A stretch of 16,299 nucleotides of DNA. Origin: Bradymonadia bacterium (GTDB lineage: Bacteria > Myxococcota_A > Bradymonadia > UBA7976 > UBA1532). Of this stretch, positions 227 through 16,299 are shown one piece after another. The first letter of the stretch is position 1, and every line of letters begins with the position of its first letter. The position numbers and the translations under genes are program-made. The notes beneath the pieces were generated by a model. The model was not told the DNA's origin and ran no database searches. It worked only from the letters and a program-made list of their open reading frames with translations. Location of the stretch: assembly GCA_046290225.1 (NCBI GenBank), contig JBKAGE010000020.1, forward strand, positions 1 through 16,299. Reading direction: 5' to 3'.

Positions 227-300
227 TTGGCGAGGCGGGGGTCGAACCCGCGACCTTCGGTCTGTCAAACCGCTGCTGCAACCAGCTGAGCTTCTCGCCA
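227..300 (-). tRNA. tRNA-Val(GAC), atypical (A8, G27.A43 mismatch), CCA not encoded
   Basis: Cloverleaf: acceptor TGGCGAG/CTCGCCA, anticodon loop TT-GAC-AG, T arm GCGGG-TTCGACC-CCCGC, discriminator A. Confidence 0.85.
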
Positions 301-302
301 TC

Positions 303-323
303 AATCAGCAATCAGCAATCAGC
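303..323. repeat. 3 x 7-bp tandem repeat (aatcagc) in tRNA spacer
   Basis: aatcagc-aatcagc-aatcagc; the equivalent spacer in the upstream unit has one variant copy (aatcggc, 874-880). Confidence 0.8.
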
Positions 324-396
324 ACGAATGGCAGGACTCGAACCTGCAACCTTCAGCTTAGGAAGCCGCCGCTCTCTCCAATTGAGCTACACTCGT
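323..396 (-). tRNA. tRNA-Arg(CCT), CCA not encoded
   Basis: Acceptor ACGAGTG/CATTCGT, D arm GCTC-AATTGGAGA-GAGC (A20), loop TT-CCT-AA, T loop TTCGAGT, G73. Confidence 0.92.
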
Positions 397-400
397 ATCG

Positions 401-475
401 TGGGACCGGTGGGACTCGAACCCACAACCGTCTGCTTAAAAGGCAGCTGCTCTGACCAAATTGAGCTACGATCCT
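401..475 (-). tRNA. tRNA-Lys(TTT), A1.C72 mismatch, CCA not encoded
   Basis: Acceptor AGGATCG/CGGTCCC, loop CT-TTT-AA, T arm GTGGG-TTCGAGT-CCCAC, A73. Confidence 0.9.
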
Positions 476-481
476 TCGAGG

Positions 482-555
482 CGAAATCGGTAGGACTCGA
501 ACCTACAGCCTCCTGCTCCGCAAGCAGGTGCTCTATCCACTTGAGCTACGACTTC
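482..555 (-). tRNA. tRNA-Arg(GCG), CCA not encoded
   Basis: Acceptor GAAGTCG/CGATTTC, D loop AAGTGGATA (A20), perfect anticodon stem CCTGC/GCAGG, loop TT-GCG-GA, G73. Confidence 0.92.
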
Positions 556-559
556 AAAA

Positions 560-632
560 TAGGACTGGCAGGACTTGAACCTGCATTGCCCGCGTATCAG
601 ACGGGATTCCTAACCACTTAGAAGACAGTCCT
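560..632 (-). tRNA. tRNA-Ile(GAT), atypical body, CCA not encoded
   Basis: Acceptor AGGACTG/CAGTCCT, D arm TTCT-AAGTGGTTA-GGAA, loop CT-GAT-AC, 4-nt variable loop, T loop TTCAAGT, A73. Confidence 0.82.
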
Positions 633-634
633 AT

Positions 635-795
635 AGAGCAGTATGAGGAGTGAACTGACACACCAGGCTCGCCCATCGACGAGATCCCAAGCTCAGAAAT
701 ACTCGATGATGCTTTGGCATCGTCTGCGATTTCTTCACGTGGCCTCTCGTCGATGTTCTTCGCCTTCTGTATCAGTTCACTCCTCATACTGCTCT
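635..795. mobile_element. 161-bp palindromic MITE-like element (or rod-shaped RNA) within the tRNA array
   Basis: Perfect 24-bp terminal inverted repeats (635-658 / 772-795) extending to 34 bp with 3 mismatches; inner 11-bp IR (674-684 / 745-755). No clean target-site duplication seen. Confidence 0.6.
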
Positions 796-871
796 GGTTG
801 GCGAGGCGGGGGTCGAACCCGCGACCTTCGGTTCGTGAAACCGCTGCTACGGCCTACTGAGCTTCTCGCCA
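795..871 (-). tRNA. tRNA-Val(CAC), atypical (A8, G27.A43), CCA encoded
   Basis: Near copy of 227..300 differing only in the D arm and anticodon loop (TT-CAC-GA); ends ACCA. Confidence 0.85.
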
Positions 872-879
872 TCAATCGG

Positions 880-953
880 CACGACTGGCAGGACTCGAAC
901 CTGCAACGTTCTGCTTAGAAGGCAGACGCTCTATCCACTTGAGCTACAGTCGC
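880..953 (-). tRNA. tRNA-Arg(TCT), CCA not encoded
   Basis: Acceptor GCGACTG/CAGTCGT, D loop AAGTGGATA, stem TCTGC/GCAGA, loop CT-TCT-AA, G73. Confidence 0.94.
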
Positions 954-956
954 GCA

Positions 957-1034
957 TGGTCGGATCGGTGGGACTCGAACCCACAACCGTCTGCTTAAGA
1001 GGCAGCTGCTCTGACCAAATTGAGCTACGATCCG
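957..1034 (-). tRNA. tRNA-Lys(CTT), CCA encoded
   Basis: Acceptor CGGATCG/CGATCCG, loop CT-CTT-AA, ends ACCA; near-identical to the Lys(TTT) gene. Confidence 0.94.
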
Positions 1035-1152
1035 ATGAGGGAGATCGAGATCTCCCAAAAGACTATCAATACACCCACAAAACGCACCTCTCTCCCTACC
1101 AGCCACAAACAGCCAGCCAACCAATACTCAAAAAACACAATTCAATAGTCAG

Positions 1153-1226
1153 AAGAGCGAGCAGGACTCGAACCTGCAGCCTCTTGCTTCGGAAACAAGC
1201 GCCCTATCCAATTGGGCCACCGCTCC
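1153..1226 (-). tRNA. tRNA-Arg(CCG), U73, CCA not encoded
   Basis: Acceptor GGAGCGG/TCGCTCT (two G.U), D arm GCCC-AATTGGATA-GGGC, loop TT-CCG-AA, T loop TTCGAGT. Confidence 0.88.
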
Positions 1227-1287
1227 TCAAAAAACCAATATCAAATCAAACACCTAACCTCCGCACCGTGCACCGCGGAGGCGCGCA

Positions 1288-1426
1288 GGCGACGCGCTTT
1301 GGTGGCTGAGCGTCGAGTTGGCGTGTATCTGTGGTGACTCAACCGGAAGCGTAGCAGCGCTACGCTGAGGATTGAGGCGCCGCAGAGACGCGTCAAATCG
1401 CCGCTCAGACGCCAAAGCGCGGCGCC
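1288..1426. repeat. 139-bp long imperfect hairpin
   Basis: Ungapped 55-bp arms 1288-1342 and 1372-1426 (44/55 Watson-Crick); inner hairpin agcgtagc-agc-gctacgct at 1348-1366. Confidence 0.85.
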
Positions 1427-1435
1427 GGAGCCCAT

Positions 1436-1470
1436 AAAAAAACCCGCCAATCCTTGAGGAGAGGCGGGTT
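1436..1470 (-). terminator. Intrinsic terminator (attenuator 3:4 helix) upstream of the tRNA array
   Basis: Minus strand AACCCGCC-TCTCCTCAAGGATT-GGCGGGTT, with a run of 7 T starting at the stem base; begins about 28 nt after the leader stop codon. Confidence 0.9.
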
Positions 1471-1498
1471 CTCTACTGAAACGCTTTTATGAGCAATT

Positions 1499-1606
1499 TC
1501 AGAAAGTTCCACCTCCTTCACGACGTACGCGAATCACCCGCAGACGGCGGACGGATTTCACCCGACGCTTGAGTCTGACGTTGACGATGGTGTTCTGGAC
1601 GTACAT
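1499..1606 (-). CDS. Putative attenuation leader peptide, 35 aa (MYVQNTIVNVRLKRRVKSVRRLRVIRVRREGGGTF)
   Basis: GGAG 9 nt before the ATG; 9 Arg, 7 Val, 2 Lys and 2 Ile codons; its 3' end is complementary to the terminator's 5' arm. Confidence 0.8.
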   Translation of the reverse strand: MYVQNTIVNVRLKRRVKSVRRLRVIRVRREGGGTF

Positions 1607-1661: not shown

Positions 1662-1690
1662 TTTGTATGTATTACGAACGCAGTGGTCAA
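1662..1690 (-). promoter_or_regulatory. Putative sigma70-type promoter for the leader/tRNA operon
   Basis: TTGACC (1690-1685), 17-bp spacer, TACAAA (1667-1662); A/T tract upstream (1704-1717). Confidence 0.5.
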
Positions 1691-4733: not shown

Positions 4734-6518
4734 TCAGCGCAGTGCTCGACCTCGAGCATGTTCGAGGCGCTCATGAAGCGTCTGCATAGAAATATCTCGA
4801 TACGCCCCCGGCAACCAGCGCCGGCTGCTGGCTTCTTGCACCGCCAGGAGCTCCATGTACTCCATCATGGCGGTCTCGCGGGTGGGCAAGTAATCCCGGG
4901 CAGCCTGGGCCAGATAGGGGCCGGTGAGGGTGTCAGCAGCCTCTTCAGTTGCCTGCTCATCCGTCTGATCGGCGTTGGGGTTCAGCCCAGCGTGTAGATC
5001 GTCCCAGGCCATGAGCAACAATGCCTCGAGATCTGCTGCGCCGTAATCGTGCAAATCTTCGAGGATCGGCAGCAGCACCTCGTCGGGGAGATCGACCTTG
5101 AGTTTGTGGCGCCTGATCTGTGCCCGAACAATGGCCGCTCTCTCGGTGGAGCTTTGCGGCCGGAAGAACGGGATCTTGGTGTCGAAACGTCCTGGCCGCT
5201 TCATGTCGGTGTCGAGCTTGTCGGGGCGGTTGGTCATCATCATGAAGATGATGCGGCCCCGGTGATCGGGATCGCTCATGAACTCCTTGAGCCGGGCCAT
5301 CACCCGAGAGTTCACCCCAGAGTCGCCCTCGTCGCCGCCCATGGCTCGATCGCCCTCGTCGATGATGACCAGGATCTCACCAAGGCTCTCGATAACGCCG
5401 AGCACCTTCTCAAGGTTGGCCTCGGTGCTGCCCACCCACTTGTCCCGGAAGTTCTTGAGCTTGATGGCGGCGAGGCCACTCTCCCGTGCAAAGGCTTCAG
5501 CGATGAAGCTCTTGCCGGTACCCATGGGGCCCACGAGCATGACGCCCATGGGCACCTGGGCCCTCCGGCCGGCCTTCACGTGATCGACGATGCGCATGAG
5601 CCCTTGCTTGATGGGCTCGAGGCCGCCAACAACGGTGAAGTCGTGGTCGGGGTTGATGACCTCGATGAGGCCGTGACACTCCTGCTCGAGGATCTCTTTC
5701 TTGCGGGCGGCCACCTGCTCCACGGGCAAGCTGTCGTCGGGGCCCTCGGTGAGGGTGCCCGACTTCATGAGATCGTCCACCTGTCGCAGCTGCAACCCTG
5801 CCGTGAGGCGTACGAGGCCCGAGCCACGCTCTTCGCTGAGACCAGAATGAGCGTGGCTGAGGAACCGCGCCCGCTCCAGACCCGCCGGCAAGGGCACCTT
5901 GATGGCCACGATTCTGGGGTTCCGGGTGAGGCGCTGGCTCAATGACGACAAGGTGCTGCACAGCATGATCACCATGTTGTCGTTGTGTACCACCTCGTCC
6001 CAGAGAGACCACCGATGCAAGGTGGCGGCGGCGGTGCGATCCATCACGCTGAGGCTGGCGGCGTCACCGGCGGGGGTGATGAGGGAGCCATAGTGCATGA
6101 TGATGGCGCAGGGCATCTCGGCCCGCGTGAGCAAGACCTCGAGGGCAGGCAGCACCACGGCAGCGTCCCGCTCCATGCCCAGAGCGTCGTCGAGGGCCCG
6201 CACGAGTGCGGCGTCAGAGGTCGCCGCAGCCCGGATCATGTTGGCCTCGACGAGGGCCCGAGCAGCGAGCACGGCGTGGGACCGCTTGGGAAAGTACACG
6301 CCCTTGCCGGGGTCGAAGTGCACCACCAGCTTGCCGCTGGGCTCGAAGAAGGCATCGAGGAAGTCGGGCATGCTCCACACCCGACCCCCAGCGAAGATCA
6401 CGTCGTGCACATTGCCATGCAAGATGAACTGCCCAGTGTCAGTGTGCAGATATCGATCCCGAAGGGTCTGCATCCACTGGGGGAGATCAGGGGCGCGGGG
6501 CAGATCGAGGGCGGCCAT
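4734..6518 (-). CDS. Classic-clade AAA+ ATPase with one intact module and a long N-terminal region
   Basis: Walker A GPMGTGKS, pore loop KWVG, Walker [36 protein letters not shown] supports the start at 6518. Confidence 0.9.
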
Positions 6519-6631
6519 GGGGACCTCGCTGTACGGCAGAGATGGGAAGAGAAATGTGAGGTGGGCGTGATGCACATGCATCACGTAGCGCAGTATGACT
6601 CAGCGCAGTATCACTGCAGTGACGACCAGAC

Positions 6632-7345
6632 TCAGAGGGTCTTGTTGCCCTCGGTCTCGCCGCCACCACCACCGCCTTCACGAGCAGCCTTGAGCGCAGC
6701 GAGGCGGGCCTTGGCCTTGGCGGTGCCGGTCTGGGCGCGGATCTTCTCGAGCTTGCCCTCGAGGGACTCTTCCTTGAGCTCGGTGTTGATCTGCACCTCG
6801 GCCTTCACCTTCTCGGCGTAGTCGCGCACGTTCTGCAGAGCCTTGACCTCTTCGTCGACAGAGATGCCGTCGAGCTGCTCCTGGATCTGCTTGCGGGCCT
6901 CGGCGTCCTTGATCTGGGCCACGACCTTGTCGCGCTCGCGCTTGAGCTTCTCGATCTCGGACTGCACGTTGCGCAGCGAGTCTTTGGCGGCCTCAGCGTC
7001 GCGGCTGGCCTGCTCGATGTCGCGACGGTAATCGGCGAGTTGCGCTTCGAGCTCTTCCTGGCGCTCGAGGAGCACCAGGGCGGACTCGTCATCACCGCTG
7101 TCGACGGCCACCTGCACCTGCAGCCTGATCTCTTCGAGGGCCGACTCGGCCTTCTGGATCTTGGCCTCGAGCTGGGCCCGATGCTTGATGAGCCCCGCCG
7201 CGGCGGTCTTGAGCTTCTGGTACTTCTCGGTCATGGCGTTGATCGCGTTCTCGAAGGCGATCTCCGGATGCTTTTCTTCCATCCGGCCCACGAACATGCT
7301 CAAGAAGCCCTTCCACAGGTTGTACATCCGGGACATGAAACCCAT
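6632..7345 (-). CDS. PspA/IM30 (ESCRT-III-like) family coiled-coil protein
   Basis: Amphipathic N-terminus MGFMSRMYNLWKG, E..HPE hinge, 'AVDSGDDESA' turn, long coiled coil, C-terminal 'ARLAALKA'; GGAGG RBS. Confidence 0.88.
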   Translation of the reverse strand: MGFMSRMYNLWKGFLSMFVGRMEEKHPEIAFENAINAMTEKYQKLKTAAAGLIKHRAQLEAKIQKAESALEEIRLQVQVAVDSGDDESALVLLERQEELEAQLADYRRDIEQASRDAEAAKDSLRNVQSEIEKLKRERDKVVAQIKDAEARKQIQEQLDGISVDEEVKALQNVRDYAEKVKAEVQINTELKEESLEGKLEKIRAQTGTAKAKARLAALKAAREGGGGGGETEGNKTL

Positions 7346-7347
7346 CT

Positions 7348-8331
7348 TCAGACCTCCAGCTTCTCAAGGTCATGCGCCGTGAGACCCATCTCGGCCCCCA
7401 GCTGCTTGACCAAATCGATGTTTCGCAAATTGTCGGCAAGCGTCTGAAGCAAGAACAGACGCGCCTTGGTGTGCATGGCTTCGAGGCGACCGTCATCGAC
7501 ACCGAAAGCTTCGGCGAACTCGGTGATGCGGACGCGCTCTTCGACGGAAAACTCTCCGTCGGCGTAGATGAGGAGAAAACACGAGATGAAGAACGCTTCT
7601 TCCACCTGAGCACCTTTCAGTGCGCTGGCGGCCTCGGCGAGGTCAAAGCCCTTCTGTCGCAGGGCCTCGAGCTGCTCTGAGGTGTCGGCGTCTTCGAGCC
7701 CGCAGAAATCGGCGATGAGAGCCACCTCCGCGGGGTGCTCGCCGTCAGCGCCGGCGAGGGTGAGCAGACCACGACCGATGAGGCGGGTCTGGGCGTCGGT
7801 GAGCTGCAGGCTCTCGTAGAACTCTTCGGCAGTCTCGAGCACGGCGGCGTCGGCGAGGGCCTCGACGTCGATGGTGCCGAGGCCCATCTCACCGGCGATC
7901 TCCAAAACGGCATCGCGGTTGCGCACGCCCTCGGCGATCTCCTTGAGCAGGAACAGCCGGGCGCGACGATGCAGACCGTCGAGGGTGGGCTGGTCGAGAT
8001 CGAAGAGCTGCGCGAAGGCGGCCACCTTGGCCCGCTCTTCGTCGGAGTGGTTGCCGTCTGCGTACACCAGCATGTAGCAGGTGATGAAGAAGGCCTCGAC
8101 GAGATGCTCACCGCCGGCTTTCACGGCCTCGGCGGCGGCGCCGTCGAAGCCTTCAGCCCGCATGGCCGCCAGTACATCTTCAGGGCTGCTGCTGCTCCCA
8201 CTGTAGAAGTCGGCGACAAGAGCCAGCTCTGACTCGTGCACCCCATCGACAGCGGCGAGATCGAGCAAACCCCGGCAGATCCACTCGGTCTGGGCATCAG
8301 TGAGCTGGATGCCCTCGTAGAGTTCCTGCAT
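7348..8331 (-). CDS. Tandem TerB-like domain protein
   Basis: Two ~160-aa internal repeats (QLTDAQT..I.RGLL.LA..DG.H..E; YADG..S.EER); stop lies 2 nt before the PspA start. Confidence 0.8.
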   Translation of the reverse strand: MQELYEGIQLTDAQTEWICRGLLDLAAVDGVHESELALVADFYSGSSSSPEDVLAAMRAEGFDGAAAEAVKAGGEHLVEAFFITCYMLVYADGNHSDEERAKVAAFAQLFDLDQPTLDGLHRRARLFLLKEIAEGVRNRDAVLEIAGEMGLGTIDVEALADAAVLETAEEFYESLQLTDAQTRLIGRGLLTLAGADGEHPAEVALIADFCGLEDADTSEQLEALRQKGFDLAEAASALKGAQVEEAFFISCFLLIYADGEFSVEERVRITEFAEAFGVDDGRLEAMHTKARLFLLQTLADNLRNIDLVKQLGAEMGLTAHDLEKLEV

Positions 8332-16214: not shown

Positions 16215-16299
16215 GGCTCTGATCGTCCTACACATCTTTTGGTGTAGTGGTGGATTGGTTAGCGGCGAGCCAGCCCAGCTCGAACATGAGGATTTTTTC
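16215..16299. repeat. 85-bp repeat, exact reverse complement of 9..93; possible IS end
   Basis: Begins GGCTCTGATCGTCCTACAC and runs to the window edge. Confidence 0.9.

Follow-up and report, generated by a model that had tools for sequence, protein, structure and literature searches.

A nine-gene spare tRNA operon in a Bradymonadia genome with a codon-matched leader and a predicted transcription attenuator

What would a bacterium do with a second, divergent set of tRNA genes when most of their anticodons are already supplied by its housekeeping genes, and what would decide when the second set is transcribed? The window (the whole stretch of DNA analysed, 16,299 nt) is the entire contig C20 of an 8.58 Mb draft genome with 64% GC (G000). 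ARAGORN and Rfam place exactly nine tRNA genes on its minus strand at 227–1226 (50.6–67.8 bits against an Rfam cut-off of 29; Table 1), in the order and with the anticodons given in a preliminary description of the locus. Other observations made there were borne out: the anticodons of each named pair differ solely at position 34, no anticodon is repeated in the window, a Val–Arg spacer motif is common to both units, and the palindrome inside the array is real. That description also took the array to be functional; the strongest sign of function lies in an upstream leader and terminator that the description had missed. Judging from codon content and modelled RNA folds, we consider it likely that the nine genes form a backup tRNA operon under ribosome-mediated transcription attenuation by a codon-matched leader.

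Table 1. Features of the tRNA array and its upstream region, in the order of transcription.
Feature	Position	Strand	Basis or remark
-35-like hexamer TTGACC	1685..1690	-	Predicted
-10-like hexamer TACAAA, 17 nt after -35 box	1662..1667	-	Predicted only
35-codon leader ORF	1499..1606	-	GGAG Shine-Dalgarno-like site at about 1616-1619
Purine tract, leader codons 31-33, predicted antiterminator 5' strand	1509..1516	-	Pairs with 1467-1460
Intrinsic-terminator-like hairpin and run of 7 U	1436..1471	-	Fold -27.9 kcal/mol, z -5.5
REP-like dispersed repeat, a long palindrome separating terminator and first tRNA	1283..1431	.	
tRNA-Arg(CCG)	1152..1226	-	ARAGORN, Rfam
tRNA-Lys(CTT), CCA encoded	957..1034	-	ARAGORN, Rfam
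tRNA-Arg(TCT)	878..953	-	ARAGORN, Rfam
tRNA-Val(CAC), CCA encoded, A at position 8	795..871	-	ARAGORN, Rfam
Palindromic dispersed repeat, MITE/REP-like, inside array	635..795	.	6 near-full-length copies on other contigs
tRNA-Ile(GAT), divergent, without close paralogue (best 65%)	559..633	-	ARAGORN, Rfam
tRNA-Arg(GCG), only array anticodon new to genome	480..555	-	ARAGORN
tRNA-Lys(TTT)	400..475	-	ARAGORN, Rfam
tRNA-Arg(CCT)	322..396	-	ARAGORN, Rfam
tRNA-Val(GAC)	227..300	-	ARAGORN, Rfam

Beside 46 housekeeping tRNA genes, the genome carries 38 accessory calls that form a second, divergent set, five doubtful ARAGORN calls having been removed before counting. The accessory genes lie on separate contigs in units of 1–10 genes sorted by amino acid: Arg/Lys/Val/Ile (the window), Leu/Ser/Tyr, Asp/Glu/Gln/Phe, Ala/Gly/Thr, Cys/Met/Pro and Trp, with two further Arg genes at the start of contig C24. 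Seven of the nine array anticodons already occur among the housekeeping genes; Ile(GAT) is probably also present in an unassembled rRNA operon, no 16S gene having been found in the draft assembly. The earlier suggestion that selection acted for isoacceptor coverage rather than dosage is therefore apt within the spare set but not genome-wide. A strict pattern for the new Arg(GCG) matched 6 of 401 sampled phylum genomes, and in the other five the gene stands alone or in a Ser-Ser-Ser-Arg cluster with no evident leader.

How did the operon come by its isoacceptors? The preliminary description proposed duplication of a four-gene Arg-Lys-Arg-Val unit with a switch of the wobble base. The Lys-Arg-Val stretch and its copy are 84% identical over about 236 nt, spacer included, with pair identities of 95% for Lys, 89% for Val and 85% for Arg(TCT)/Arg(CCT), but only 76% for Arg(CCG)/Arg(GCG), whose following spacers are of unequal length (117 nt against 4 nt). 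A tree was built of 57 Arg, Lys, Val and Ile genes from 75 columns; numerous forks in it stayed unresolved and its bootstrap had not settled completely. In this tree the Val pair is the sole well-supported array clade (99/93), the CCG/GCG pair has support of 71/0, and the Lys and TCT/CCT pairs are neither recovered nor rejected (p-AU 0.07 and 0.06). Grouping of array tRNAs with separate housekeeping isoacceptors, the outcome that the description had named as fatal to its proposal, was rejected in all four AU tests, in which the Lys(CTT), Val(CAC), Arg(TCT) and Arg(CCG) genes of the array were each joined to their housekeeping counterpart of equal anticodon (p 0.001–0.02). Arg(TCT) is 85% identical to its housekeeping copy, equal to its identity with its array partner, and Arg(GCG) has a nearer match on C24, Arg(TCG) at 80%, than its proposed partner Arg(CCG).

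Duplication of a three-gene Lys-Arg-Val block with wobble change is thus well supported by sequence comparison and would be the route by which the operon gained isoacceptors; extending the unit to Arg(CCG)/Arg(GCG) is plausible only, given the low identity, the 71/0 support and the unequal spacers. The best match lies inside the same unit for 30 of the 38 accessory calls (counting C24 with the window), which indicates that local duplication with anticodon change is general in the accessory set of this genome. The palindrome at 635–795 has six near-full-length copies of 78–91% identity elsewhere in the genome; being dispersed genome-wide, it is not specific to the array, and its copies on other contigs rule it out as part of the tRNA duplication.

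Upstream of the array, putative sigma70-like promoter boxes precede a short ORF that reads, from 1606 to 1499, MYVQNTIVNVRLKRRVKSVRRLRVIRVRREGGGTF. Arg, Lys, Val and Ile account for 20 of its 34 codons after the start, 2.9 times the genome frequency (p = 1e-6; p = 5e-5 against nucleotide shuffles), and 18 of these 20 control codons fall within codons 3–27. Measured against the amino acids of the other five tRNA sets, the same leader shows ratios of 0.0–0.7. It uses 11 of the 15 possible codons for its four amino acids, contains Asn, Ser and Leu codons without a partner tRNA in the array, has a weak Shine-Dalgarno site and finds no match in Pfam. All six leaders of the genome are preceded by a TTGAC-like box and, 16–17 nt later, a -10-like box. 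A stricter, simple promoter and terminator scan of the window returned neither a promoter nor a terminator; its loop limit of 3–8 nt explains why it missed the hairpin at 1436–1471.

In the X3 run, one contig of depth 2 from a near relative covers 1447–1597 with 14 differences (12 listed). Ten differences lie in the ORF and affect nine codons, of which seven are changed synonymously, one from Ile to Val and one from Arg to His, with frame and stop kept. None touches the helix of the antiterminator or the stem of the terminator, and three break predicted side-stem pairs. As a sign of leader translation, the synonymous bias of this single depth-2 record is weak.

The predicted terminator hairpin starts 27 nt after the leader stop, and the alternative antiterminator fold (-27.6 kcal/mol, z -3.2) equals it in predicted energy. 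Shuffled sequences matched or beat the antiterminator in 1 of 200 cases and the terminator in none of 200; the duplex between leader end and terminator arm, taken alone, is borderline against shuffles (p = 0.053). When the nascent RNA is folded up to the terminator loop, codons 31–33 are predicted to pair with the terminator 5' arm. With a masking ribosome, sequestration of that arm is 0.57–0.69 at codons 2–27, 0.50 at codon 28 and 0.11–0.31 from codon 29 onward, and a similar drop near the leader end is predicted for the Leu/Ser/Tyr, Asp/Glu/Gln/Phe, Ala/Gly/Thr and Trp leaders. In full-length RNA at equilibrium, the terminator wins at all ribosome positions in the window leader (P 0.64–1.00), so switching would have to be kinetic.

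From these folds a mechanism can be sketched. Transcription would start near 1655. A ribosome slowed within codons 3–27 would leave codons 31–33 free to pair with the terminator 5' arm, and polymerase would read through into the tRNA genes; a ribosome at codon 29 or later would cover the purine tract and allow the terminator to form, and with no ribosome the leader is predicted to fold on itself, so that the terminator would form as well. In this way polymerase would be admitted, when ribosomes lag at Arg, Lys, Val or Ile codons, to the genes that restore the decoding of these codons.

The other accessory units of the genome carry comparable leaders. Codons for their own amino acids make up 20/34, 17/31, 24/58, 14/36 and 2/25 of the five remaining leaders, and the true assignment of leaders to units ranks first of 720 (six leaders, six units), all six ORFs having been picked after inspection of the sequence and two beginning at GTG. 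For the Trp leader, the enrichment does not reach significance against shuffles (p = 0.12). In the Cys/Met/Pro unit the Met gene is weak, a clear terminator is missing, and the leader has five His codons although the unit includes no His tRNA. A uniform pipeline applied to 78 clusters at hand-chosen loci, with clusters having under 600 nt upstream dropped and G000 codon frequencies used for all genomes, assigned a cognate leader, at an adjusted p < 0.01, to 10 of 32 accessory clusters and to 0 of 46 housekeeping clusters, the latter being mostly orthologues and hence not independent. It missed the Ala/Gly/Thr unit (p = 0.02) and an Asn unit of G422, and one of its ten matches (G419, two Arg tRNAs) looks like chance.

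Four related genomes (G012, G414, G419 and G422) show the same design with other amino-acid groupings. G414 has a 17-tRNA array whose leader has 59 cognate residues of 66, while Leu/Ser/Tyr and Asn/Cys/Gly/Phe/Ala/Thr units, all with matching leaders, are present in both G419 and G422. In G419, one Asn/Cys/Gly/Phe/Ala/Thr array follows two successive units of cognate-rich ORF and terminator (L117, contig C658), possibly a tandem attenuator. In G012, the orthologous Asp/Glu/Gln/Phe operon additionally contains an Arg(GCG) and an Arg(CCG) gene, and its leader aligns codon for codon with that of G000 (77% of columns identical). The G012 leader has seven Arg codons, all CGC, CGT or CGG, against one in G000 (Fisher p = 0.053), and Arg is the G012 residue at 6 of the 13 amino-acid differences (p = 0.0008 against 6/61), the direction of change being unrooted. 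Read from sequence, this comparison suggests that leaders and arrays evolve together.

Might the attenuator be real and yet sense general translation stress, such as antibiotics or stalled ribosomes, with the codon match secondary and the spare operons switching together, much as a repressor switches the Anabaena trn operon? A stall anywhere in codons 2–27 gives the same predicted fold, and PMC8421152 reports induction of the Anabaena array by translation inhibitors. A general sensor, however, needs no amino-acid-specific leaders, whereas each leader here is enriched only for its own operon and leaders track tRNA content between genomes. We therefore regard this explanation as unlikely, though general stress may act as an added input to the attenuator.

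If attenuation is codon-specific, what would slow the ribosome? Our preferred trigger, and the least certain part of the proposal, is loss or damage of housekeeping tRNAs. A shortage of amino acids is not relieved by making more tRNA, which is why we prefer tRNA loss, and a leader spread over 11 of 15 codons fits tRNA loss better than it fits the classical pattern, in which one starvation-sensitive codon is favoured. Counting against this trigger, leaders were found to sample more synonymous codons than genome usage in only one of five cases, so that this idea was rejected as a general rule, and anticodon loops are identical to those of housekeeping genes in four of seven same-anticodon pairs, which leaves unsupported the further idea that array tRNAs evade nucleases through altered loops. 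On balance we lean slightly towards a wider reading, in which some bacteria of this class would keep a near-complete backup set in amino-acid-sorted operons, own-codon leaders would make up a codon-specific feedback loop sensing the loss of particular tRNAs (to the nucleases of phage defence or of competing cells, for instance) and replacing just those, and leaders would be rewritten as tRNA genes move between operons.

The surroundings of the array bear on a different explanation, that it is left over from a tRNA set gained by horizontal transfer and is now silent or decaying, with a vestigial leader. Its distribution is patchy. Among 113 class genomes, the leader with its terminator matched G000 alone and had no orthologue in the 112 others, and the top matches inspected were housekeeping tRNAs both for the whole array against 28 family genomes and for a partial array against 401 phylum genomes. 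A Val-gene pattern gave four viral and six genome matches, none of them a tRNA, and Lys and Asp gene patterns gave none in metagenome and viral collections. Repeats have inserted at 635–795 and 1283–1431, an insertion-sequence end lies directly downstream, Lys(TTT) has a 1:72 mismatch, and several array genes have a G-A pair atop the anticodon stem. Yet all nine genes score well over the Rfam cut-off and keep what we take to be the customary identity bases (A20 in all four Arg genes and, in the Lys, Val and Ile genes, A73), with U73 in Arg(CCG), and the promoter boxes, open frame and terminator are intact, with synonymous bias in the near relative. Decay is, in our view, even less probable than a general stress sensor. 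Least credible of all is that the ORF encodes a functional basic peptide, the hairpin being merely its terminator, the tRNA match chance and the array a constitutive isoacceptor supplement, as the preliminary description implied, since, easily as short Arg-rich ORFs arise in GC-rich DNA (the G419 match looks like one), six unrelated peptides each fit only their own operon, no housekeeping cluster among 46 has such a leader, the leader belongs to no Pfam family and seven of nine anticodons are supplied elsewhere.

At both ends of the contig (1–93 and about 16215–16299) lies one and the same end of a multicopy insertion-sequence-like element, the interior of which is unassembled. Twenty such ends break contigs of the genome; REP-like palindromes are their insertion sites, and the target duplication is apparently 3 nt long. 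On C24 (L037, 180–334), array-type Arg(ACG) and Arg(TCG) genes without a leader lie directly behind the other end of this element. They may continue the window operon, completing all six Arg anticodons; at the C20–C24 join the repeat arms fit, but the 3-nt target duplication does not. Elsewhere in the window, consecutive minus-strand genes at 4734–8331 encode a TerB-domain protein, a PspA/IM30 protein and an AAA ATPase, and other neighbours are a beta-eliminating lyase family gene (1854–2867), DUF1295, DUF2252, an AMP-binding enzyme and a LysR regulator. No link was seen between the array and the protein-coding neighbours in the window.

Several further tRNA loci depart from the usual form. 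Eight of the 32 accessory clusters have a sigma54-type promoter motif and no leader, and none has both (sigma54-type accessory loci: L039, L099, L122, L126, L127, L133 and L134). L126 (G422, C175) is an accessory cluster that includes a tRNA called as Ile with anticodon TAT, which is unusual in bacteria. At L038 (G000, C34, 1133–1587), three tRNA-like genes with 35–45 nt anticodon-loop inserts sharing a conserved core follow a sigma54-type motif and precede two Pro tRNAs; long tRNA matches, comparable in size to these insert-bearing genes, occur at L094 (G414, C181). L036 (G000, C14, 1496–2430) holds a tRNA with a CTA anticodon (65 bits) behind two genes. Upstream of it, an 8-codon ORF has TAG as its stop, past which translation would continue to a stop overlapping the next start codon; this ORF is possibly an amber-sensing leader for a suppressor-like tRNA. 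A gene called Thr(TGT) at L031 (G000, C37, 77832–77917) has a Tyr-type long-arm body with 83% identity to the neighbouring Tyr gene and is probably, from its sequence, a Tyr copy with a damaged anticodon loop. After the Asp/Glu/Gln/Phe array (L032, C42, about 91860–91930) lies what we take to be a piece of 23S rRNA, helices 69–71; Rfam lists nothing at this stretch.

How does the proposed system relate to known ones? Leaders that combine several amino acids are familiar from ilvGMEDA and thr. PMC1183508 lists trp, his, leu, thr, ilvGMEDA, ilvBN as well as pheA as operons with ribosome-mediated leader-peptide attenuators, and the locus resembles the attenuators of these amino-acid operons in its short ORF with cognate codons, a predicted antiterminator overlapping the 3' end of that ORF and a predicted terminator shortly after the stop. 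It differs in what would be controlled, namely nine tRNAs rather than synthesis, transport or synthetase genes, so that the output would directly restore the decoding step that is sensed, where classical targets are enzymes. Classical leaders, according to the same paper, are biased to one starvation-sensitive codon, unlike the codon-diverse leader of the window.

A second comparison is with L-arrays, described in PMC8421152 as a second, divergent and redundant tRNA set that is patchily distributed and proposed to stay silent unless translation comes under stress, and with the Anabaena trn operon, which according to PMC10272220 is controlled at its promoter by the DNA-binding repressor TrcR. 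Like these, the accessory tRNAs are surplus to the housekeeping set, from which they diverge and with which they are redundant; unlike an L-array, a single long array of up to 43 genes, they form short amino-acid-sorted operons, each with its own leader. Neither 'attenuat' nor 'leader' occurs in the main texts of PMC8421152 and PMC10272220, whose supplements may bear on upstream features of L-arrays.

T-box riboswitches offer the third comparison, and one is reportedly found before tRNA-Asn genes in Clostridium. Rfam gave no T-box match in the window, only tRNA matches reaching the gathering score. As in T-boxes, tRNA status would decide between terminator and antiterminator; a T-box, as characterised in PMC7778990, binds tRNA directly and without translation, whereas the switch proposed for the window is ribosome-mediated. 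In the literature searched, mostly open-access main texts, we found no report of leader-peptide attenuation of tRNA genes. Attenuation is a textbook control of amino-acid supply. Placed on tRNA genes, if the proposal is right, it would amount to direct feedback on decoding capacity, would offer an answer to why and when many bacteria use redundant tRNA arrays, and would let the leader sequence predict which tRNAs a cell guards.
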